Below are positions 3,131 through 28,257 of a stretch of 64,000 bases of DNA, piece by piece; within the stretch, counting starts at the first letter, position 1; each line of letters starts with the position of its first letter. Made by a program: the position numbers and the translations under genes. The notes below the pieces were generated by a model. That model saw nothing but the letters and a program-made list of their open reading frames with translations. It had not been told where the DNA came from and did not search any database. The stretch is from Escherichia phage 4MG: the sequence record NC_022968.1; one strand, written 5' to 3'.

Positions 3131-3804
3131 TACTCAACTCCTGCCATAATGAGGGAGCCGAACCATGTGTTCCCTCCGTCATAAGTGACGAACTGGAAGA
3201 TGTCTCGTACCCCGGTTTTATATGAAAGAACTGGTTCTCGTCCATAGTTCCACTTGATGTTGCTAGGCCATGAAACAAGGTTGGCCCCTGTCCCCTGAGT
3301 TAAAGATAACTGGAAGGTTTGGGAAATTCCCTGAGCGGTAGATGGGTTGGTGATACCGACCACACACTGCCCTGATGTCAGGTTAGCAAGGAAGGTATCT
3401 CCAAGTGTCAGGTTGCAGGTTGCAGTCCCCTGGACGTTACCCAGATTAACAACCTTACCTGTAGAACTTCCACCACCGCTTGCACCAAACTCCTGCCAAG
3501 CGTTAGAACTGATACCCCCGGTTGTCGCCGGGGATGAAGACATTGGAATTGTCTTTGGATAAGTACCGTTCCATGTGTAATATTTACCATCAGTTGCGAA
3601 GAAGGCGAGATCCTTTTTGGATTCAAGATATCCTCCCTCAGCAAAGAAAACCACTCTTGTCAAGCTCATCTTGGAAACGATTGTGTCCAAAGAGGCCTTT
3701 CTGGTAGTATCTGACTGATCAGTAACAACAAAATCGCCACCTGCAACGGTGACGGCAGTTGGAAGGTCAGAGACCTTCACTGTTGGAAATGCAACATCTG
3801 CCAT
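3130..3804 (-). CDS. tail fiber-associated protein (224 aa)
   Basis: start overlaps stop of upstream gene; N-terminal motif FPTVKVSDLPTA..GDFVVTDQSD shared with partial CDS at 1..331. Confidence 0.5.
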   Translation of the reverse strand: MADVAFPTVKVSDLPTAVTVAGGDFVVTDQSDTTRKASLDTIVSKMSLTRVVFFAEGGYLESKKDLAFFATDGKYYTWNGTYPKTIPMSSSPATTGGISSNAWQEFGASGGGSSTGKVVNLGNVQGTATCNLTLGDTFLANLTSGQCVVGITNPSTAQGISQTFQLSLTQGTGANLVSWPSNIKWNYGREPVLSYKTGVRDIFQFVTYDGGNTWFGSLIMAGVE

Positions 3805-3814
3805 TATTTACCCC

Positions 3815-4432
3815 TTAGTGGTTACGGTTGATGGACTTACCATCTTCGGTGGTGATGACATTACTCTTGTCATCCATCAGGCTACCGACAGGAATTGGGT
3901 TATCAATATCTGTACCAGCCCAGGTGTTCCACCATGTAGCATCGCCAGTGCGAGGCAGACGGAAGTTGATCAGATAGTAGAGCTTGTTAGCCCACGTAAT
4001 CCAACCATCATCGTCACAAAGAACCGTTGCACCTTCATCAGGGATTGGGTAATAATACTCATCCTGACCAACGAAAGCAAGTCGTACAACCTCTTGTTCT
4101 TTGGTGGTCACTTCGAAGAAGGCCTGATAACTACGTGTGGTCCGATCCATTGAAGAGTGGAACGAAGTGATCTCAAGCACATCAGGCTCAAGTCGGGTAA
4201 CTTCCTTGATCTTATTGTCAAGGACTGTTTTCATTACCTTCTTGCTCAGATATGTTCGGTATGGGAAACCAAAGGTTTCATCAAAATACCAGTTGCCAGC
4301 CCAGATATTAAAACGTAGCCACAATCTCTGACGGAGGCTTGTCTGGTTTGACTCAATGATCTGGAGACCCGTGGAGACATCAAGGTCTCCAGTAACAGGG
4401 TCCATAAGAAGGTCAGAATAAAGAGTAGCCAT
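3815..4432 (-). CDS. putative baseplate protein (205 aa)
   Basis: ORF in tight minus-strand operon between tape measure and fibers; function by position only. Confidence 0.4.
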   Translation of the reverse strand: MATLYSDLLMDPVTGDLDVSTGLQIIESNQTSLRQRLWLRFNIWAGNWYFDETFGFPYRTYLSKKVMKTVLDNKIKEVTRLEPDVLEITSFHSSMDRTTRSYQAFFEVTTKEQEVVRLAFVGQDEYYYPIPDEGATVLCDDDGWITWANKLYYLINFRLPRTGDATWWNTWAGTDIDNPIPVGSLMDDKSNVITTEDGKSINRNH

Positions 4433-4441
4433 TTATTCCCC

Positions 4442-5143
4442 TTATGCGTTTGGTGCGGCGGTGTTGCTCTGACCTGAGCCGTCCGTCCAAGTGTAGTGGT
4501 GGGTGTGGCGCATGAAGTAATCATAAAAGTCATTCATGTTGACACCACGGGCGGTGATCAGGTTTCCATCAGGTGTGATCTTTGCCCCGTTCATTTCAAT
4601 ATTCCCGTCAGTTTTCGCTGTCAAGGTTGCTGCTCCGTTAGTGAACTGCATCTGACCAGACTTATCCACCTTGAAAGTACCAACAGGCCCTGTTAAAGTA
4701 AAAGTCCCATCCGGGGTCATCGAGAAGTGAACCGTGTCATTCCACAACTCGACGTTATCAGGGTCGATTGTCATGGCGTTCCCATCACTATGCACACCAA
4801 TGATTGACCAACCAGGAAATAGTCCATGAGTTGTCGTATCGTTAGCATCACCCTCATTACGTTCGGAGAATGAAAGTCCAACCACGTCACCAGGCTTCAC
4901 AGGAAGCGTCAGGCGAGCTTTTCCACCGTTAGCTGAAGGCATGGAAAGGGGGACATCAAAAACCGCAGGATAAGCGTCTACGGTGCCATCATCGAAGTTT
5001 GTAGATGCAAGGGGTTGTACGGTTGCAGAAGGGATGCTGTAATCAACATCAACAACCCTTGCTCTTAGCCCGGTGTGGATATCACGAGCTTGACGGGCGA
5101 ACCACTGGTTCAAGGCAGCATCCATACGTTGAATTGATGCCAT
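4442..5143 (-). CDS. putative baseplate spike/tail protein (233 aa)
   Basis: ORF in baseplate block; C-terminal His-rich motif HTHHYTWTDG; assignment by position. Confidence 0.4.
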   Translation of the reverse strand: MASIQRMDAALNQWFARQARDIHTGLRARVVDVDYSIPSATVQPLASTNFDDGTVDAYPAVFDVPLSMPSANGGKARLTLPVKPGDVVGLSFSERNEGDANDTTTHGLFPGWSIIGVHSDGNAMTIDPDNVELWNDTVHFSMTPDGTFTLTGPVGTFKVDKSGQMQFTNGAATLTAKTDGNIEMNGAKITPDGNLITARGVNMNDFYDYFMRHTHHYTWTDGSGQSNTAAPNA

Positions 5144-6132
5144 TATTCCTCCACAATGCCACCACGGGTTTCTGCAAGTCCGATCTCAGACACCCAATCG
5201 CCACCTTCAAGTTGGCCTTTGTGAGTAAGATAAACTACCTTGTAGAAGCCTGTGTATTTCTGGCTTTTTAGATAAATTGTGCTTTCTGGGATGATCGCAC
5301 CGTTAAGTTCTGTAACAACAACAAGACCTGCGTCCTCTTTGATTTCAGCACGACTTGGACCTTTATTGGTCTTCGGCTTACTTTTAGACTTCTTCTTTTT
5401 CTCAAGGCGGCGTTTTGCAGGCTCTGGGTTTTGCGGGGTTGGTGAATCATGCATCCCAGATTCAGCACTGATCTCAAACACCGCATTGCGGAATCTCTTG
5501 CCCTGTGTAGTCCAGTACACAGCACCGTCCTGAACACTAAAGGTTGATCCGGTGTTTTTGGCAAGGCGTTCGAGATTGTTTGCAGCGTTACCAGTAAATG
5601 CCATAGACTGCTGAAGGGTCTGGTTACCGAACTTAACCACCTTACCAATAGGTAGTTTAAGGTCTGAAACAAGGTCATTAAGAACCGTATCCAGCGGTGT
5701 CCCCTTCTTGTAAGAACGGGCAGTCTTTGCTGTCATGATGTTGGTTGTTGCATCACCCAAGATCATTTTTGTTTGACGAGTATGACCATCCCACTTATCC
5801 TGAACAAACTCTACAGTCCCGGAGAAGATTGTCTGGTTTTCACCATCGAACCCTGCCTCCAGAACAATAGCAATCGACTCACGCTGGTTAGCATCAAGAT
5901 AGCTTACCGTTTCATCAGACAGGTTGTAAAGGGTGACATACCCTTTGTTAGGGTCTTTTGAGTTATCTTTCTTCACCTCGAACTCGATATTTGCTGCCCC
6001 TGTTTCGTTACTGACAACATAGGCATCCTTCGTGTTCTGGTTGGTGTAGTCAGAAATGTTGGTTGGCTTTTGCCCGATGTATACGGGCTTGCCAATAGTA
6101 AGTCTGAATGTTCGTGTTCTGTAAGAAGGCAT
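5143..6132 (-). CDS. putative baseplate protein (329 aa)
   Basis: ORF with start overlapping upstream stop; position downstream of tape measure. Confidence 0.4.
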   Translation of the reverse strand: MPSYRTRTFRLTIGKPVYIGQKPTNISDYTNQNTKDAYVVSNETGAANIEFEVKKDNSKDPNKGYVTLYNLSDETVSYLDANQRESIAIVLEAGFDGENQTIFSGTVEFVQDKWDGHTRQTKMILGDATTNIMTAKTARSYKKGTPLDTVLNDLVSDLKLPIGKVVKFGNQTLQQSMAFTGNAANNLERLAKNTGSTFSVQDGAVYWTTQGKRFRNAVFEISAESGMHDSPTPQNPEPAKRRLEKKKKSKSKPKTNKGPSRAEIKEDAGLVVVTELNGAIIPESTIYLKSQKYTGFYKVVYLTHKGQLEGGDWVSEIGLAETRGGIVEE

Positions 6133-6134
6133 GA

Positions 6135-6485
6135 TTACTCCTCGTCAGTTAACTCTTCGTCAGGAGATGAATAAAGGAGTTGCAAGTCAGACAAGAATCC
6201 GATATTGTATCTACCAACACGTTTGGTTGACTGTGTAAAAGAAAAGACACGCAGTTGTCCGGATGGGATGTTTTCCAAGTATTTAAACGGAGCAAAGATG
6301 TCAAAAATGGTTGTAAGTTTAAAAGAGATTGTTGGTGTTTGACCAACATCACCAAAGGAAACGAGCCAAGACTCATCTCGCTCGTTCCATTGGAAACGCA
6401 TTTCATAGGTTTGACTGTCCAGAACCACACGCATGGTCTGGTCAGCGAAGCCGTCAATGTCCCATGAGAAAGTAATAGCTGACAT
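6135..6485 (-). CDS. hypothetical tail protein (116 aa)
   Basis: compact ORF, stop/start overlap with neighbours in tail operon. Confidence 0.35.
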   Translation of the reverse strand: MSAITFSWDIDGFADQTMRVVLDSQTYEMRFQWNERDESWLVSFGDVGQTPTISFKLTTIFDIFAPFKYLENIPSGQLRVFSFTQSTKRVGRYNIGFLSDLQLLYSSPDEELTDEE

Positions 6486-7357
6486 TAGTTCCCCACTGCT
6501 TTTTTATAGTCCATGATTGAGCCGTCAGTACCACGAATTTTACCATCTGGGGTAATAGTACCAATGACCTGATCTTGTTTTGTGAAGTTACCTGAATCCA
6601 TAGCCTCAGCAATTTTTTGCCACCCATCTTTATTTGGGCCAGCAAACTTGGTGCGTCGGGCAGTTACTTCAACTTCATTATCTGTTGCGGAAGATTGTTG
6701 AGAACCTTTCTGCTTGGTCTTCCCACCAGACTTTTTAGGATCTGAGTAGACTGTCGCGAGGGCTGTTTTACCAAGGGTGAATGTACGGAATTCCGTAAAC
6801 TCAAGCTGGAATACCAGCGCCGCACCGTCAGAGTTGCTACGTGCAGCCTCCATTGAGGTGAGGATATAGTTCTCAATAATTTTGTCTTCGGTAACCAAAG
6901 TCACAATTTGACGATCAGTAATCAGACGTTCCAAGATCTCCAGAGCTTTTTCTGGACGACGAGAAGCAACCGGGTTCTGGTCATCAGTATCTTTGTCAAG
7001 GTAGTTGTTTTCGATAAGGTAAACAGGAGATGAGTTCACTCTGGCACTGAAGGAGAATTTACCATCTTCAATAACACCGTGGTCACTAAATTTTACCTTT
7101 TCTTCAACAGCATATGATGTCTTGTCAACTGTGCGTGTGTAAGAATGTTGTTCAACAACGTCGAAAATGATCGCGAGGTCGTTGGTGTAGTTTTTGTCCT
7201 TGAGTTCTACGTTTCTACCGCCGTAGTTAAGACCGCTGGCGAAGAGCGTATATTGCACCTCACCGCTGGCTTCCTGGGCTGTGTTGACCTTTTTCTCGAC
7301 GTTAGCCGTGGCCTTGCCCTGTTGCGGTTTGGACTGGTTGTTGGATACAAATGCCAT
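6485..7357 (-). CDS. putative tail/baseplate protein (290 aa)
   Basis: ATG at 7357 preceded by RBS GGGAGGA; directly downstream of tape measure gene and terminator hairpin. Confidence 0.4.
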   Translation of the reverse strand: MAFVSNNQSKPQQGKATANVEKKVNTAQEASGEVQYTLFASGLNYGGRNVELKDKNYTNDLAIIFDVVEQHSYTRTVDKTSYAVEEKVKFSDHGVIEDGKFSFSARVNSSPVYLIENNYLDKDTDDQNPVASRRPEKALEILERLITDRQIVTLVTEDKIIENYILTSMEAARSNSDGAALVFQLEFTEFRTFTLGKTALATVYSDPKKSGGKTKQKGSQQSSATDNEVEVTARRTKFAGPNKDGWQKIAEAMDSGNFTKQDQVIGTITPDGKIRGTDGSIMDYKKAVGN

Positions 7358-7412
7358 GAGTCCTCCCATTATACATGTTACGATTTTATCATAAATCTTG
7401 AGATAAAACAAT

Positions 7413-7436
7413 AAAAAAGGGGCCGAAGCCCCTTTA
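7413..7436. terminator. bidirectional hairpin terminator
   Basis: A-run, GGGGC-cgaa-GCCCC, T-run; just downstream of tape measure stop. Confidence 0.5.
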
Positions 7437-7438
7437 AA

Positions 7439-9832
7439 TTATTGAGGAACACCAAGGATTAGGTTGATGTTACCCATGTTCGCAGCTTCAATCTGCTGGT
7501 CGATCATGTTCTTCATTTCGCCTGCGTCGATTTTGATCGTGATCTCACCGCTCACAGGTTCAGTTGGAATCACCATCGGAGGTGTTGCAGCCCCGGCTGG
7601 TCCAGGAACCATTCCATTCTGGTTCAGATAATCAAGTCTGCGCTGGTCAGTCATTGATCTCTGGCCTGTAATGAAGTCCCAAGCCTGTCCCATCCAAGAG
7701 TTTTTCTTCAGGTTACCACCTGCCGTGGTTTCAGTTCCATAAGTCTTATCGCTGTATTCCTGAGCAGAGTCGAAGACGTAATCTCCCAACAGCATACTCT
7801 CACCAGCGATCAGTGCAAACAAACCACCCTTACGTGCAAGCTTATTGCCAAGGCTTAATCCCTTGCCTTTACCCTTCTTCTTGCCCGGACCATCCTCTTC
7901 ACCACCGCCACCATTTCCAACACCAAAGATATCAGAGATAACCTTCAGTGCAGTGGAGAGACCAGCGATCTTAGTCAGGATGTTAAAGACACGAATAAGT
8001 GCAGAAGCGAAGAACAGAGCACCTACGCCCCAGCCTACCCATTTCCATGCAGAGGAAAGCTCTTCACCGTTCTTACGGAAGATCGGGATATAACGCTCCA
8101 TGATGCCTTGGATCAGGACAAAGGTGTTGTAGACAGTATAGACCATCTCCATAAACCCGGCTGTGAATCCAGCAAAGAATTGACCAAGATTTTGCGCAAG
8201 GGGACCGTTGGAGTCAAGAATTTTTGCGAGTTCGTTAAACGCGCTAGTTAATTCTTCACCAAAGCCACTCTGGAATACCTTGTTCTGGAAGTCCATCCAT
8301 GTTAATGTCAGACGCTGCATTGCAACACGGTTACCTTGCAGGGCTTTCTGAAGCGCACCACCCTTGTTTGCTGCCTCTGAGTAATACTTGGCAACGAATG
8401 GCAAGATTTTCGCAGCCTTCAGTTCACCCTTCTGCATCATGTCCATCATCTTGGTTACATCAATGGTGGAATCACCAAAAGCTTCCTGCGTTGCTTTGAG
8501 GAATACCTGTAGAGAACCAGGAATACCTTCCGCAAGCTGTTGCTTAAGTTCTTCAGCCATGATCTGACCTTTACCCATCATCTGTTGGATCGCAGTAATA
8601 CCACGTTGGTATTTAACTGGGTCAACCTGGAGGGCTGTTGAATATTCAGAGAAGGACTTGAATAGCTCATCGTTTTGTGATTTACTAAGAACACCGTTAG
8701 CGGCAATAGCCATTTGGGTGTAACCCTGTGCAGCAACTTTCAGGTCAAGACCTAAACGGTAGGACTGATCACGAACAAATTTCAGACGCTTACCTGCCTC
8801 TGCGGAGTCATCAGAAACCATCAGCATGGTTGCTTCCATACCCTGGAAGAACTGACCTGTTCTTACCACGCTTGCAGCAGCGTTGAATGCACCGTATGCA
8901 GCAGTTACACTCACCAACGTGCTACGCAGGTTCTTCAGCCCATCAGTCAAGGACAGGGTGTTCATGTTTGCTTTACGAAGTCCGGTCTCCATTGCAGCAA
9001 GTTCAGCACGGAAGTTTGAAGACTTCATGGTGTTGCTGTCAAGGAATCTTTCTTTCAGGGAGTCGAAACCCTTAAGTTTGGTTGCGTAGTTGTCACCATA
9101 TTTTGCACGAAGACGTACAGAGGCGTTGGCTACAGTTGATTCTTTACCTGCAAGATAACGAGAGTAACGAAGGTCTTCTGCCTCTTGTTTCTTACGGGCT
9201 TGTTCACGAGCACGAAGTTGCTCTCTGGATGCTTTCTGCTGTTGGCGTTGAACCTGCTGTTGCATTGCACGGTTTTGACGTGCAATCAGTGCCGGATCAG
9301 ATGCAGTACCACTACCAACCATGCCTGAAGCATTCCCTGATTTAGAACGGCGAGCCAGTTCCTCTTGCAGAGCAGCTTGACGTGCAGCAGAGATAGCGGG
9401 GTTTGTACCATAACCACCACCCGTTTTTTCCATTTGACGTAGACGTGCTTTCAGTCCATTATAGTCAGCTTGGGATTCAGGTGAACGTTTGGATGTCAGT
9501 TGAGCAACAGCTTGTTTTCTACGTGCTCTCTGGATCTTGTCAATTGCTTCACGAGCACGAGCCTCTTTCTTCGCCATAGCAATGTTATGGGCTGTGGTCT
9601 TTGCTTGTTCAGCACGTTCAGTTTGTTGCAGTCTTTTGTTGACAAGGCGAGCCTGCATTGCAGAACGCTTCAATGCTGCCGCTGGGTCTGACTTGCTGGC
9701 AGAGAATGCCTTACCAGCTTTTTCCCACTCAGTTTTCAAAGACTTCACAGCTTTCATGGCACGACCGAAGGAGGTCTTGTCCACGTCCCATGTGACTTTG
9801 TTGACTGTCTGGGTTACAATAATGTTCGCCAT
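7439..9832 (-). CDS. tail tape measure protein (797 aa)
   Basis: long A/Q/K/R-rich coiled-coil protein with Gly-rich segment, located after tail tube/chaperone genes. Confidence 0.7.
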   Translation of the reverse strand: MANIIVTQTVNKVTWDVDKTSFGRAMKAVKSLKTEWEKAGKAFSASKSDPAAALKRSAMQARLVNKRLQQTERAEQAKTTAHNIAMAKKEARAREAIDKIQRARRKQAVAQLTSKRSPESQADYNGLKARLRQMEKTGGGYGTNPAISAARQAALQEELARRSKSGNASGMVGSGTASDPALIARQNRAMQQQVQRQQQKASREQLRAREQARKKQEAEDLRYSRYLAGKESTVANASVRLRAKYGDNYATKLKGFDSLKERFLDSNTMKSSNFRAELAAMETGLRKANMNTLSLTDGLKNLRSTLVSVTAAYGAFNAAASVVRTGQFFQGMEATMLMVSDDSAEAGKRLKFVRDQSYRLGLDLKVAAQGYTQMAIAANGVLSKSQNDELFKSFSEYSTALQVDPVKYQRGITAIQQMMGKGQIMAEELKQQLAEGIPGSLQVFLKATQEAFGDSTIDVTKMMDMMQKGELKAAKILPFVAKYYSEAANKGGALQKALQGNRVAMQRLTLTWMDFQNKVFQSGFGEELTSAFNELAKILDSNGPLAQNLGQFFAGFTAGFMEMVYTVYNTFVLIQGIMERYIPIFRKNGEELSSAWKWVGWGVGALFFASALIRVFNILTKIAGLSTALKVISDIFGVGNGGGGEEDGPGKKKGKGKGLSLGNKLARKGGLFALIAGESMLLGDYVFDSAQEYSDKTYGTETTAGGNLKKNSWMGQAWDFITGQRSMTDQRRLDYLNQNGMVPGPAGAATPPMVIPTEPVSGEITIKIDAGEMKNMIDQQIEAANMGNINLILGVPQ

Positions 9833-24352: not shown

Positions 24353-25909
24353 TTAAAGTCTTTTATACAAGGTCGGAGCAACAATTTTCGGGATTACGAC
24401 AGGTCTGATGACTTCGTTCTTCTCAAGGTAGTTAATACCGGAAGCTACGCAGTCGGCCCAGTCATCCTTACGGGTTGTTGTGCTTCGCTCACCATTGAAC
24501 TTTTCAAGTTCGGTCATAAGGGCTTCGTAAGTTTTAGCATCAAAGCTGTCTCTTACGACACGTACCATTCCGGACTGTGCAAGTTTTGCAAATGGGGTGA
24601 AGCGGGTAAGTTTTGATTTGTTACCCGGCGTTGGATCTCGCTCAACGATAAATCCTTCAGCCAGAAGCTCACGAGAACTTGTTGTGAATTCACTAATACC
24701 AGCCTGACCAGGGTCAACGTTGAAAATGATAACAACGTCATCACCATCGTAATGGGCTTGCTTTTTAATGATCACATCACGTTCGCCAGCTTTTTTACAG
24801 AAACGACCTTGTGTTTGTGTTGAGTACATTCCGTCATCAACGAACTCAGGGCAATAGTCACCGGACAGGTAGTAGAACCCGTCACTATCCTTACTGATCT
24901 TGACAGACGCTGTAAAGTCGGGATATCTGTTGCCAGAGGTTCTCTCTGTACCCGCCTTATCGTAAGGACGGACAGATGTCACACCCAAAGGAAGGCAAGG
25001 AACTTCTTTCAAATAAGATCGTTGGAAATAGTTTGCACCTTCAGGGCGAACTTTCCAGTTACCGTGAAGTAGCTGTGCCTTTTCGATTTCAGGTAGACCT
25101 TCAAGGAACGCAAGGTAATCAGGGTTGTTGTCAAGCATCGGTGGGTTATCAAAGATAGTCGCACTGATGAATGAGAATGATAGTGGTTTTGGTTTCTTAC
25201 GAACGTCAAGACCATCCCAATACTGCTCGATCAGTTCCTCTGCACTCTCTCCCCAAATGAATTCACCATCACGACGAATGAACCAGCGAATAACACCGTC
25301 ACGTTCAGGGATAGGGAAACCATCATCATCAAGATACCATTCGATAAGCTCTTTGATCTTGTGATCTGGGTCCGGGTTACAAGAGATAACCATGCGGCTT
25401 GGGTATTTGGATTCAGAACGAAGACGAGACATAAGGTATTCGATCTGAGACCATTCAAACTGTGTTCCTTCGTCAAAACCGACAAAGGTATATTGCAGAC
25501 CCTGGTGAGAATACTTATCTTTCTCATATTCCATGTGGGACCACTTAACTTTAGCACCGGAAGGGAAAATTGCCTCTAGGTCTTTCTCCCTGAAGCGTGG
25601 CTTCCATTCAGGAGCAAGCTGTGTGTAAATGCCTCGTGCAGTATCATACAGACCACCACCACCTTTCAACTGAGGTGTGTTTCTACGGAACATAATACAG
25701 TTCGTTCTTGGGTCGTCGATAATGTTGAGGGGCATTAATTGAAGCAGGTAAGATTTACCTGACCCCGCCGCACCCCCAATGATCAGGATTTGTGCGTTGT
25801 TTTCCAGGATCATTTTCTGCTTGGGGCTGGCAGGTCCGAATGTTTTACTCAAAAGACCTCCATATTGTGCCTTAAATTGGCCTATAGGAGGTAGTTTACC
25901 ATGAAACAT
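24353..25909 (-). CDS. terminase large subunit
   Basis: Walker A IIGGAAGSGKS near N-terminus; start codon uncertain (ATG 25909, or alternative TTG at 25951). Confidence 0.75.
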   Translation of the reverse strand: MFHGKLPPIGQFKAQYGGLLSKTFGPASPKQKMILENNAQILIIGGAAGSGKSYLLQLMPLNIIDDPRTNCIMFRRNTPQLKGGGGLYDTARGIYTQLAPEWKPRFREKDLEAIFPSGAKVKWSHMEYEKDKYSHQGLQYTFVGFDEGTQFEWSQIEYLMSRLRSESKYPSRMVISCNPDPDHKIKELIEWYLDDDGFPIPERDGVIRWFIRRDGEFIWGESAEELIEQYWDGLDVRKKPKPLSFSFISATIFDNPPMLDNNPDYLAFLEGLPEIEKAQLLHGNWKVRPEGANYFQRSYLKEVPCLPLGVTSVRPYDKAGTERTSGNRYPDFTASVKISKDSDGFYYLSGDYCPEFVDDGMYSTQTQGRFCKKAGERDVIIKKQAHYDGDDVVIIFNVDPGQAGISEFTTSSRELLAEGFIVERDPTPGNKSKLTRFTPFAKLAQSGMVRVVRDSFDAKTYEALMTELEKFNGERSTTTRKDDWADCVASGINYLEKNEVIRPVVIPKIVAPTLYKRL

Positions 25910-25951
25910 GATAAAAATAAAGCCCTTATCACAAAATAAGGGCCTTGTCAA

Positions 25952-26242
25952 TCACTTTTTAGGATCAAATATGTTGCGAATATACTGCTGAAGGATGCGA
26001 AGTTTGCTACGATCATTTGCTCCGTCGAGGTTGTTCTTCTTCATGATCGCACTGTTAACCGAGTTGTCAGCACCATAAGGAAGAGGTGTAGGCTCAACAG
26101 GGTCAACCATAGCCGCAGCAGGAGGCTTTGCAAGGACTTCTGCTGGGTCAAACTTCTGCACCACTGGAACAACCTCAGGTGCATTTCTGCACCCGCTTAT
26201 AAGCGCTGTAGCAACCAGCACTGCGATTATCGTCTTTCTCAT
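25952..26242 (-). CDS. outer-membrane spanin lipoprotein (Rz1-like, 96 aa)
   Basis: signal peptide with lipobox LISGC, Pro-rich mature part; follows i-spanin with 4-nt overlap. Confidence 0.55.
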   Translation of the reverse strand: MRKTIIAVLVATALISGCRNAPEVVPVVQKFDPAEVLAKPPAAAMVDPVEPTPLPYGADNSVNSAIMKKNNLDGANDRSKLRILQQYIRNIFDPKK

Positions 26243-26643
26243 TTCAACCCCAGGCTCTCGTTATAAATATCCACAAAGTCATTATCCAGACCCTTCTTCT
26301 TTCCGTTATCAGAGTTTCGATAAGCGTCTTGCTTCTTGTCAAGCTCTGATTGCAGTTTTGCATTCTTTGCTTTCTCTTCCTCAAGTTGCTTACTTAACTC
26401 ATCAGAAGACTTCTGCTGGTTGTCTTTGTAGTCATGATTGGCATTCTTGTTTTCCTGTTGTTTGGCAGTCCACTTATCATCAGTATCTTTCACACCACGA
26501 TTGTAAGAAGCTGTGATTTGGTCATTGTACCAGTGCTTAGTATAAACCGCCCCGGAGAACAGGGCGATTGCTAAGATTGCTGCGATGACTAATTTAGTGT
26601 TGTTCCTGATAAAGGCAACCACCATTCTAACTACATCTATCAT
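26239..26643 (-). CDS. inner-membrane spanin (Rz-like, 134 aa)
   Basis: N-terminal TM helix then charged coiled-coil (EEEKAKNAKLQSELDKKQ). Confidence 0.55.
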   Translation of the reverse strand: MIDVVRMVVAFIRNNTKLVIAAILAIALFSGAVYTKHWYNDQITASYNRGVKDTDDKWTAKQQENKNANHDYKDNQQKSSDELSKQLEEEKAKNAKLQSELDKKQDAYRNSDNGKKKGLDNDFVDIYNESLGLK

Positions 26644-28064
26644 GAGATATCCCCATTTGATTCAATAAGACGTTCTATTCTGAGAAGAGTTTCTTCATCG
26701 TCAAGGATCTCAACCTGTGCATCATCATACGCGATCTTTGTTGGATCAAGCACGGTCACCTCAAGCAAAACAGCGCCCGGTTTGGAGAGTCTGTCGCCCC
26801 AACGTCCTGTTTTACCCTTCTCACCCCAAGACTTATAAACATCGTATGCTTCTTTCTCATCTACATACAGATTCATTACATCAAGGAATTCATCAGCAGG
26901 TTTTGTCTCCAGAAGCCCTACAGACTGGTTTGGGTTGGTTGCCTGCATCAGGTAGAAATTCTCTGCTGGACAAACACCCCATAACTTTGAGAAGTAAGGC
27001 CTGCCCGTATTCATACGGAGGCGTTGATACATAGAGAAGATGTTTTCCGGCTTTAACCCTCGGTATCGGCTGAACTGACCCTTTTCAGATTCCGTTGCGA
27101 TGCTGGAGATCATGTAATCACCCGCTGAATCCAGTTTATCAAATAATAGGTCAAATGAAAATGGTTTAGTTTCATTGAAAAGCTCTTCAACGTTTGTACC
27201 ATACATCCCACTCAGGTGTGCCTTGGCATCTTCCCACGATTCAATATTAAGACCTGTCGCTGCGATACCGAGCTTCATTGTTTCACGACGAGAGATCGTG
27301 TACCCACGGGCGCGGTATTTGTCTGAGCGAAGCATACTGATAATGGGGTAATCTGTGCCGGGATTAATCACCAGCACCTTTTGTGCTAAGTGCTTGAGGA
27401 ATCGGCTATCAAACTCCCATTTCTCGCTGGCAAAGCTGAAGGCACCCATATTGATCGTAAAGTCAAATTTATCGAAGATCGCCTGAGAATCCTGGAACAC
27501 ATCGAAAGCAATAACCTGCATCACCGGGGACGACTGATTGGTGAACATAACGCTCTTATCCGTCATACCGAGGTTGTAGATGTTGTCTGGTTTATTATCT
27601 TCAGTTGCCTTCTGGATAGCCTTGAATACATTCCCGTTTCTCTCCCGGAGCAGAGAATACAGCTTTGAAAGCTGAGATGCGGAGAGCGGGGTTGGTTGGC
27701 GCTCTTTCTTCTCACATACCAATGCGTTCACGTAATCTTTGTGGCAACCAGGGTTATCCAGTTCAAGGAAATAGACGAACGAACGTTTTGAATTGCCCCA
27801 GTTGTTACTTGTAGGGGTTAGGTCGCTGTCACCAATAAGTAGACCGCGATCAGTCATGTATGCGAGGAAGATCTCTAAGTTTTCCCATGATGGGAAGTAG
27901 AGGTCAAGGTCGTTGACTTCACGATTAGAGAACAGAGAGGTGAGCGTACCACCCGCAATACGGGCATCAAGACGCTTGAGGATCTCGTACACGCCCTTAG
28001 GGATCAGGCTGTTGAGGATATTGAATTCACGCTGGAAGTCTTCTTTTGGGTAAATATGAAGCAT
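26640..28064 (-). CDS. hypothetical protein with Pol-beta-type nucleotidyltransferase signature (474 aa)
   Basis: motif GGTLTSLFSNREVNDLDLYF fits G[GS]x9-13-DhDh; otherwise unassigned. Confidence 0.4.
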   Translation of the reverse strand: MLHIYPKEDFQREFNILNSLIPKGVYEILKRLDARIAGGTLTSLFSNREVNDLDLYFPSWENLEIFLAYMTDRGLLIGDSDLTPTSNNWGNSKRSFVYFLELDNPGCHKDYVNALVCEKKERQPTPLSASQLSKLYSLLRERNGNVFKAIQKATEDNKPDNIYNLGMTDKSVMFTNQSSPVMQVIAFDVFQDSQAIFDKFDFTINMGAFSFASEKWEFDSRFLKHLAQKVLVINPGTDYPIISMLRSDKYRARGYTISRRETMKLGIAATGLNIESWEDAKAHLSGMYGTNVEELFNETKPFSFDLLFDKLDSAGDYMISSIATESEKGQFSRYRGLKPENIFSMYQRLRMNTGRPYFSKLWGVCPAENFYLMQATNPNQSVGLLETKPADEFLDVMNLYVDEKEAYDVYKSWGEKGKTGRWGDRLSKPGAVLLEVTVLDPTKIAYDDAQVEILDDEETLLRIERLIESNGDIS

Positions 28065-28102
28065 GGTTTTCTCCTTTAGTTAGTTAACTATTGGAGTGTA
28101 CC

Positions 28103-28133
28103 AGAAAAAGAAAAGCCCCGCAAGAGCGGGGCG
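28103..28133 (-). terminator. rho-independent terminator at downstream end of tRNA cluster
   Basis: hairpin GCCCCGC-aaga-GCGGGGC with run of T on minus strand (A-run 28105..28114 on plus). Confidence 0.6.
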
Positions 28134-28178
28134 AGGCAAAGGAGAGGAGATTGAATATTTATTATTATTAGAATTTGG

Positions 28179-28257
28179 ATGCGTGGATGGGAGTCGAACC
28201 CACAATTTTCGGCTTATGAGGCCAACGTGATCTATATATCCGTTTCACTAACACGCA
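28179..28257 (-). tRNA. tRNA-Met or Ile2 (anticodon CAT), extended D-region
   Basis: hand-folded: T-loop TTCGACT, anticodon loop CTCATAA, CCA encoded; D-loop about 14 nt. Confidence 0.55.

Follow-up and report, generated by a model that had tools for sequence, protein, structure and literature searches.

What does a nucleotidyltransferase-like protein do in a large lytic phage, when its gene lies between a cluster of tRNA genes and the genes for lysis and packaging? The question is raised by a locus of Escherichia phage 4MG, a Seunavirus (Vequintavirinae) that shares about 90% identity with Cronobacter phage GAP31. A stretch of 64,000 nucleotides of 4MG (record NC_022968.1), called the window below, was analysed. 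A first interpretation of this DNA, the sequence-only reading, had pointed to an open reading frame (ORF) of 474 codons at 26640-28064. The ORF is indeed complete: it lies on the minus strand, starts with ATG and ends with a stop codon, and its product is identical to 4MG gp077 (YP_008857293.1), deposited as 'hypothetical protein', the name used in all records of Seunavirus, Mydovirus and Erwinia phages that were examined. From a GG...DxD signature, the sequence-only reading had also deduced that the protein is a nucleotidyltransferase (NTase), and from the neighbouring tRNA genes that its role is tRNA modification or signalling. The NTase identity holds, and the tRNA or signalling function is not supported. 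As described below, gp077 is a homologue of Gad2 (Gabija anti-defence 2), and we consider, with a probability of about 0.6, that it is a Gad2-family anti-defence enzyme composed of a class II NTase core, an insertion of about 100 amino acids (aa) and a C-terminal domain of the ADP-ribosyltransferase (ART) fold.

Homology of gp077 to the Gad2 family

The signature, GGTLTSLFSNREVNDLDLYF, is found at aa 38-57 of gp077. Among the stop-free stretches of at least 100 aa of the window (29,315 residues in total), a single match to the pattern G[GS]-x9-13-D-h-[DE]-h was obtained, the one in gp077. In an alignment of 58 homologues, G38, G39, D52 and D54 were kept in 57 of them, and the acidic D201 in all 58. 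Judged by this conservation, the GG...DxD motif reported by the sequence-only reading is a conserved element and no chance match.

Profile searches, proposed at the time as a check on the NTase assignment, gave a divided answer. Searches of Pfam, NCBIfam and PDB sequences with the single protein returned no significant match, and searches of PDB profiles with the alignments of both subgroups (A2 and A5) gave chance matches only. In the PHROGs collection, the protein falls into phrog_16176 (function unknown) and matches phrog_18122, 27100, 4400 and 1614 less strongly; phrog_1614, on which gp077 scores 2.6e-4, carries the name 'nucleotidyltransferase'.

The informative match came from a tblastn search of phage genomes, where the core of gp077 matched the gene annotated Gad2 in Bacillus phage SPbetaL7 (UniProt GAD2_BPSP7). 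By BLASTP, two colinear segments were found. The first aligns aa 10-59 with Gad2 3-52, at 50% identity (1e-11), and contains the pattern IAGGxxTSLFxNxExNDxDxYF. The second aligns aa 111-306 with Gad2 13-211, at 32% identity over about 200 aa (E 5e-33), its homologous part being about aa 165-306 against Gad2 70-211. It follows that gp077 has an insertion of some 100 aa after the DxD (aa 60-160), absent from Gad2. The match also holds in the other direction: on phrog_16176, the family defined by gp077, Gad2 scores 1e-49, and both proteins match phrog_18122, 27100, 4400 and 1614. When a profile of the Vequintavirinae type was aligned with one of the Gad2 type using hhalign, a probability of 100% and an E value of 6e-90 were obtained over 335 columns.

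The same residues are invariant on both sides. In the gp077 subgroup these are G38, G39, D52, D54, Q183, D201, T237, R246, K249, Y250 and G289, and their counterparts in Gad2 are, in the same order, G31, G32, D45, D47, Q88, D106, T142, R151, K154, Y155 and G194, so that the columns of the two alignments coincide over the whole set of family residues (GG, DxD, Q, the D of DFT, T..P, R..KY and YG). The catalytic carboxylates of the Gad2 type are invariant in 34 of 34 sequences. Both proteins are encoded by phages, and in both an alpha/beta domain of similar size occupies the same C-terminal position. The differences are the insertion, a C-terminal domain only marginally similar to that of Gad2, and the biology: the host of 4MG is Gram-negative, its gene sits between the tRNA cluster and the spanin genes, and inhibition of Gabija is known for Gad2 of SPbetaL7 and its Brevibacillus homologue, to which gp077 is linked through its sequence. 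We conclude that gp077 is, by sequence homology, a previously unannotated member of a known anti-defence family, with a variant architecture marked by the insertion and the divergent ART-fold C-terminus.

The family turned out to be large. A profile search of 1.84 billion representatives retrieved 4,500 clusters at E ≤1e-3 and 668 at E ≤1e-30 (counts of representatives at 50% identity), as compared to the 170 homologues first reported. A core of about 250 residues is common to these clusters, and their C-termini are variable. Every homologue of our set (P0001-P0057) bears the precomputed Pfam tag PF26128.2; a curated Pfam family for this domain therefore seems to exist, though we found no mention of PF26128.2 in the searchable literature.

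Nucleotidyltransferase core and C-terminal domain

A structure prediction had been suggested together with the sequence-only reading, and it recovered an NTase fold. The AlphaFold2 model, computed with 58 sequences, had a predicted local distance difference test score of 81.7 and a predicted template modelling score of 0.80, with low confidence in two stretches, aa 117-159 within the insertion and the linker 317-333. It comprises an NTase head and neck at aa 33-316 (27117..27968, minus strand, as for all features of the gene), of the class II type found in CCA-adding enzymes and poly(A) polymerases. When this model was compared with the PDB using Foldseek, the top matches were exclusively class II template-independent RNA nucleotidyltransferases: E. 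coli poly(A) polymerase I, PcnB (3AQK, 3AQL, 3AQM), and the CCA-adding enzyme of Thermotoga, the A-adding and CC-adding enzymes of Aquifex, the enzyme of B. stearothermophilus and the CCA enzyme of human mitochondria. FAM46/TENT5 came next; these non-canonical poly(A) polymerases (6JYJ) are eukaryotic, 11% identical to gp077, and do not have its C-terminal domain. Minimal and antibiotic NTases and MenT/AbiEii toxins were not among the closest structural relatives, the comparison figures being 5.5 for ANT(2''), 5.3 for LnuA, 4.6 for MenT1 and 3.9 for a cGAS-like receptor.

Within the core, motif A (aa 37-57, 27894..27956) reads AGGTLTSLFSNREVNDLDLYF, and its D52 and D54, conserved in 57 of 58 sequences, are predicted to be metal-binding carboxylates. 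The insertion follows (aa 60-160, 27585..27887). It is specific to the Vequintavirinae-type members and partly helical, and its residues 117-159 vary in length among homologues. A motif B-like stretch, IFDKFDFTINM, occupies aa 196-206 (27447..27479), with D201, N205 and M206 invariant, and the equivalent of the motif D region, TDYPIISMLRSDKYRARGYTI, is found at aa 237-257 (27294..27356), where T237, R246, K249 and Y250 are invariant. A Pol-beta head, a helical neck and a motif A of the form GG-x12-DxD are thus all present, and the spacing is that of the GG-x12-DFD of PcnB.

Sequence comparisons agreed with the structural placement to varying degrees. When family profiles were aligned by hhalign with Cca and PcnB of E. 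coli as single sequences, the matches were colinear but weak, with E values of 0.11, 0.004 and 0.029. The second is for PcnB, a statistically weak alignment that is colinear over 194 columns, and the third is for the Gad2-type profile against PcnB. In the PcnB pairing, the GG-x12-DxD motif faced GGGVRDLLLGKKPKDFD, DKFDFTINM faced RRDFTINS, and PIISMLRSDKYRARGYTI faced the motif D region of PcnB. The same region of phrog_1614 is matched by E. coli Cca (4.5e-10), by PcnB (5.9e-12) and by members of the Gad2 family: a protein of Bacillus phage YungSlug annotated nucleotidyl transferase (8.4e-16), homologue P0045 (1.2e-11), GAP32_076 of Cronobacter phage GAP32 (4.9e-9) and Gad2 itself (8.2e-6). 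As a bridge to the class II enzymes, phrog_1614 is stronger than direct alignment.

What sets gp077 apart from these enzymes (3AQL, 3H37, 3WFO, 4WBY and 1MIV were compared) concerns the choice of nucleotide and substrate. In class II enzymes, the two arginines of motif B recognise the ribose, and the E, D and R of the EDxxR in motif D template the incoming CTP or ATP. Of the motif B consensus RRDxxxNA, gp077 keeps D201 and N205, as part of the D-x-T-I-N common to both groups; the RR positions are occupied in the family by D, N, K or S and by K, then F, and the arginine pair of PcnB is replaced by K and F in gp077. The LRxxR/K-F/Y helix of the motif D region is likewise common to both, whereas EDxxR has lost its E-D, and S243 (S or T in 58 of 58) stands in the column of the templating R. 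The body and tail domains that bind tRNA in CCA-adding enzymes are missing from gp077, which has the ART-fold domain in their place. In a Pfam scan of the 58 members, a single sub-threshold PolyA_pol (PF01743) match, of 17.9 bits for a cut-off of 23, was found, gp077 itself gave none, and no ART family was matched. Because gp077 lacks the RR, the EDxxR and the body and tail domains and stays below the Pfam threshold, we assign it neither to the CCA-adding enzymes nor to the poly(A) polymerases. The Gad2 family keeps the class II catalytic machinery, and not its nucleotide-selection code.

The C-terminal alpha/beta domain (aa 335-474, 26643..27062) was compared separately. More than 30 of its top 60 structural matches belong to the ART superfamily, and the split sheet of the ART fold is present in the model. 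The relatives include the BC2332-like protein 2AUA, the RNA 2'-phosphotransferase KptA/Tpt1 (9LD3), diphtheria-toxin-like proteins and PARP, all with undetectable sequence similarity. BC2332-like forms SCOP family d.166.1.6 in the ADP-ribosylation superfamily (PMC3000352), and its resemblance to diphtheria toxin had been predicted by ProFunc (PMC3024214). Neither an H-Y-E or R-S-E triad nor the R-H-R-R catalytic residues of Tpt1 are conserved in the domain of the gp077 type, where the only near-invariant residues are L349, R350 (on a helix), V364 and A406. The Gad2 type has a signature of its own, YKxV...SxY...FxYxxGE...GLYF...VLIE, with the K and the S invariant in 36 sequences. An ART-like fold is thus likely on the basis of the model, its catalytic competence is doubtful, and we regard recognition of a target or ligand as the more economical reading of this domain.

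Proposed function and rival explanations

Gabija has been described as one of the commonest bacterial defence systems, with a share given as more than 15% of genomes, and Gad2 is one of few known inhibitors of it. GajA belongs to the OLD family. The founding member of that family, the Toprim nuclease Old of P2, cleaves tRNA-Thr(UGU) (PMC12445682), and Gabija is reported to act on linear DNA ends lacking RecBCD and to block genome circularisation (PMC12407980). Phage SPbetaL7, in which Gad2 lies in an anti-Gabija locus, becomes Gabija-sensitive upon deletion of gad2, and the Brevibacillus homologue suffices to inhibit Gabija; Gad2 of SPbetaL7, for which an NTase domain was predicted with AlphaFold2, is toxic when expressed (10.1101/2023.05.01.538930). 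A phage NTase whose homologues are annotated as Gad2-family in some phages is likewise cytotoxic at high induction.

We propose that D52 and D54, probably with D201, would bind Mg2+ and a nucleoside triphosphate, and that a nucleotidyl group would be moved to a hydroxyl acceptor. A polynucleotide 3'-OH is the likeliest acceptor, because all close structural relatives use one. The C-terminal domain, replacing the tRNA-binding body and tail, would select the target, and the product would blunt an OLD-family nuclease defence of the Gabija type acting on linear DNA ends. We infer that Gabija itself would be the target in enterobacterial hosts. A nucleotide-transfer enzyme blocking OLD-type engagement is suggested by the combination of an intact catalytic centre, altered selection residues and a replaced substrate-binding module. 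The effect would come from a change to the target that the system detects or cleaves, or to a cofactor, and not from caging, which is how Gad1 acts upon binding the Gabija complex (10.1101/2023.05.01.538930). Since both SPbetaL7 Gad2 and the related phage NTase are toxic when expressed, enzymatic action on a host component is favoured.

Several points weigh against this proposal. The mechanism of Gad2 is unsettled, a review of February 2026 still counting it with the inhibitors that await a mechanistic explanation (PMC12904381), and the acceptor is a guess taken from a predicted fold. The experiments on the family concern SPbetaL7 Gad2 and the Brevibacillus homologue, and the members from Gram-negative phages lie outside them. 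The direct profile alignments to class II enzymes are weak (E 0.004 and 0.029), and none of the 58 members scanned reaches the Pfam PolyA_pol threshold. The C-terminal domains of gp077 and Gad2 show a weak colinear match (hhalign E 9.5e-4, probability 22%), and the invariant K, S and Y of the Gad2 type (K295, S306, Y314) have no counterpart in gp077; as this domain has diverged, target specificity may differ from that of Gad2. Finally, the gene heads the lysis/packaging block, and its translation is coupled to that of the spanin genes. Both point to expression at a middle or late stage rather than in the immediate-early phase. Such timing is unusual for an anti-defence factor, although it would suit an action at the moment when DNA ends are produced by replication or packaging.

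A broader formulation, tentative and unlikely, is that Gad2-family proteins are two-module modifiers of nucleic acid ends, in which a class II 3'-end NTase would be joined to a Tpt1/KptA-like ART-fold module for end recognition or NAD binding, and phage DNA termini, or RNA or tRNA, would be marked so that OLD-family systems cannot engage. If so, anti-defence would consist in substrate modification and not in binding of the defence protein, and the fixed place of the gene in Vequintavirinae, between the tRNA cluster and the terminase gene, would mirror a moment of action that coincides with the formation of DNA ends.

Other explanations than a Gad2-type anti-defence enzyme have to be weighed. 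Toxicity of family members upon expression and the location of the gene with late genes would also fit a poly(A)-polymerase-like enzyme that tails RNA to take over the host or to turn RNA over, with no part in defence evasion in the 4MG lineage. We hold this to be unlikely: inhibition of Gabija is the sole phenotype that experiments have shown for the family, the gene is patchy in distribution and can be dispensed with, and its nucleotide-selection residues differ from those of poly(A) polymerases and CCA enzymes. Repair of tRNA 3' ends, or CCA addition, in the service of the adjacent cluster is the role closest to that first imagined for gp077, and in a variant of it the enzyme would counter tRNA-targeting nucleases. 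The closest folds are tRNA nucleotidyltransferases, the gene comes after 26 tRNA genes, and the GAP32 homologue lies close to RnlA and PseT (about 1.5 and 3.3 kb, respectively). Old of P2 does cleave tRNA, although it cuts in the anticodon stem and not at the 3' end (PMC12445682). However, of the 25 tRNA genes called by ARAGORN, all upstream of the ORF and on the same strand, 23 have the CCA encoded; the ART-fold domain stands where the body and tail would bind tRNA; gp077 has neither the EDxxR template nor the motif B arginine pair; and no tRNA gene lies within 3-4 kb of the homologues in SPbeta, J2-1, Vibrio and Aeromonas phages. We consider this explanation unlikely as well. The tRNA-related role deduced from adjacency is therefore not supported, the adjacency being specific to a lineage and the tRNA genes supplying their own CCA. 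Synthesis of tRNA CCA ends as such was rejected, given the encoded CCA, the missing domains and the non-conserved context.

The signalling half of the initial proposal would make gp077 an enzyme of the CD-NTase/cGAS type, producing or mimicking a nucleotide second messenger. Pol-beta NTases do include CD-NTases, and what speaks for this reading is the generic GG...DxD motif alone. On the other side, the neck helices and the equivalents of motifs B and D are of the class II type, no cGAS/DncV-like fold or match to a defence-system NTase profile was found, and PADLOC returned no match. This reading is hardly credible and was rejected on the evidence of fold and PADLOC. A non-catalytic protein that would block GajAB sterically, or else a structural protein of the virion, is very improbable. 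Gad1 does work by binding, and the gene adjoins the morphogenesis block; on the other side stand catalytic carboxylates that are invariant in 57-58 of 58 homologues and in 34 of 34 Gad2-type sequences, within a family of some 4,500 representative clusters, the lack of any match to a structural-protein PHROG or Pfam family, and a frameshift of the gene in viable phages of the PVP-SE1 lineage.

With the Gad2-family assignment, a function-level annotation becomes available for a protein called hypothetical in the records examined; full-length orthologues are present in 71 records. Among the phages of the Seunavirus, Mydovirus and Erwinia groups, several have been characterised in studies on therapeutic or biocontrol use. 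That a large lytic phage should encode a Gad2 homologue is no surprise by itself. For Gad2, the NTase domain is now narrowed to the class II CCA/poly(A) polymerase type with altered nucleotide-templating residues, and an ART-fold C-terminal domain is flagged, which together make its mechanism more directly testable.

The locus in 4MG and in other phages

The full-length orthologues come from 71 phage records of Seunavirus, Mydovirus and Erwinia phages. At E ≤1e-40, no orthologue was found in rV5, a phage with a published proteome, or in Certrevirus. In the three other Vequintavirinae checked (GAP31, PVP-SE1 and Mydovirus KpS8), the order tRNA cluster, homologue, i-spanin, o-spanin, large terminase (TerL) is kept, with an endonuclease VII gene inserted ahead of the homologue in KpS8. 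Seven records of the PVP-SE1 lineage carry one common frameshift at codon ~180, just before motif B. In PVP-SE1 the frameshifted orthologue (3139-4555 of locus L010) is annotated as gp80 plus gp79, and SSE121, GEC_vB_MG, R7 and 6S are also affected. As the same two-piece pattern recurs in seven records, the frameshift is a trait of the lineage and not a sequencing error. PHROGs 25514 and 37109 owe their existence to this split alone. Being patchy in Vequintavirinae and frameshifted in viable phages, the gene is accessory and dispensable. Orthologues of about 50% identity were also found under the title 'hypothetical protein [Escherichia coli]'; their contigs, 80-134 kb long, look like complete or near-complete Vequintavirinae genomes within bacterial assemblies.

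Outside Vequintavirinae, the homologues sit among small hypothetical genes that look accessory. No tRNA gene was found within 3-4 kb at the SPbeta, GAP32, J2-1, Vibrio and Aeromonas loci. In Pseudoalteromonas phage J2-1 the homologue follows a DNA ligase gene, and in Vibrio and Aeromonas phages it is surrounded by hypothetical genes. In the Cronobacter jumbo phage GAP32, GAP32_076 is found among small genes (3980-8705 of locus L004); downstream of it, at about 1.5 and 3.3 kb, come RnlA (RNA ligase 1) and PseT (polynucleotide kinase/phosphatase), the classic tRNA-repair pair.

In 4MG, the gene has the position that the sequence-only reading had given it, between the terminator of the tRNA cluster and the lysis and terminase genes, as established by gene calls, the terminator, the spanins and TerL. 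The last tRNA gene before it is a 26th one (28179-28257, minus strand, like the elements that follow), which ARAGORN missed and Rfam recovers with 45 bits for a threshold of 29. Its anticodon is CAT, its D-arm is enlarged and its CCA is encoded; annotated tRNA-Met in GAP31 and PVP-SE1, it is almost invariant in the three phages. The two ARAGORN-called genes without encoded CCA are an aberrant tRNA-like gene (30264-30333), with an odd anticodon loop, labelled '???' by ARAGORN and pseudo tRNA-OTHER in GAP31, and a tRNA-Ser(GCU) gene (29637-29729). A tRNA-Thr(UGU) gene is present at 31750-31824; phage genes for this tRNA rescue cells from P2 Old, which cleaves the host isoacceptor (PMC12445682).

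A strong intrinsic terminator, GCCCCGC-TCTT-GCGGGGC, with 7 G-C pairs followed by a T-run, located at 28115-28132 (28105..28132 in a wider delimitation), closes the cluster and is nearly invariant in GAP31 and PVP-SE1, a single loop base being changed, in PVP-SE1 only. A ribosome-binding site, AAGGAG (28071..28076), lies 6 nucleotides before the ATG, and no sigma-70-like promoter was found between terminator and ATG. The ~110 nucleotides from the last tRNA to the ATG (28065-28178; the corresponding stretches are 7065-7242 of locus L002 and 4556-4752 of L010) are nearly 100% identical in the three phages, compared with differences of 9-28% in the flanking protein. GAP31 and PVP-SE1 have, just after the tRNA, an extra insert of 60-80 nucleotides that is absent from 4MG and dissimilar between the two. 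Downstream of the ORF come two Rz-like spanin genes, the large terminase and the portal. The i-spanin gene (26239..26643) overlaps the stop codon of the ORF with its start, as ATGA, and the same 4-nucleotide overlap is annotated in GAP31, KpS8 and PVP-SE1. The large terminase ORF (24353-25951) begins with TTG and would encode 532 aa, compared with 499 aa annotated in GAP31 and PVP-SE1; its true start is probably ~33 codons downstream of the TTG.

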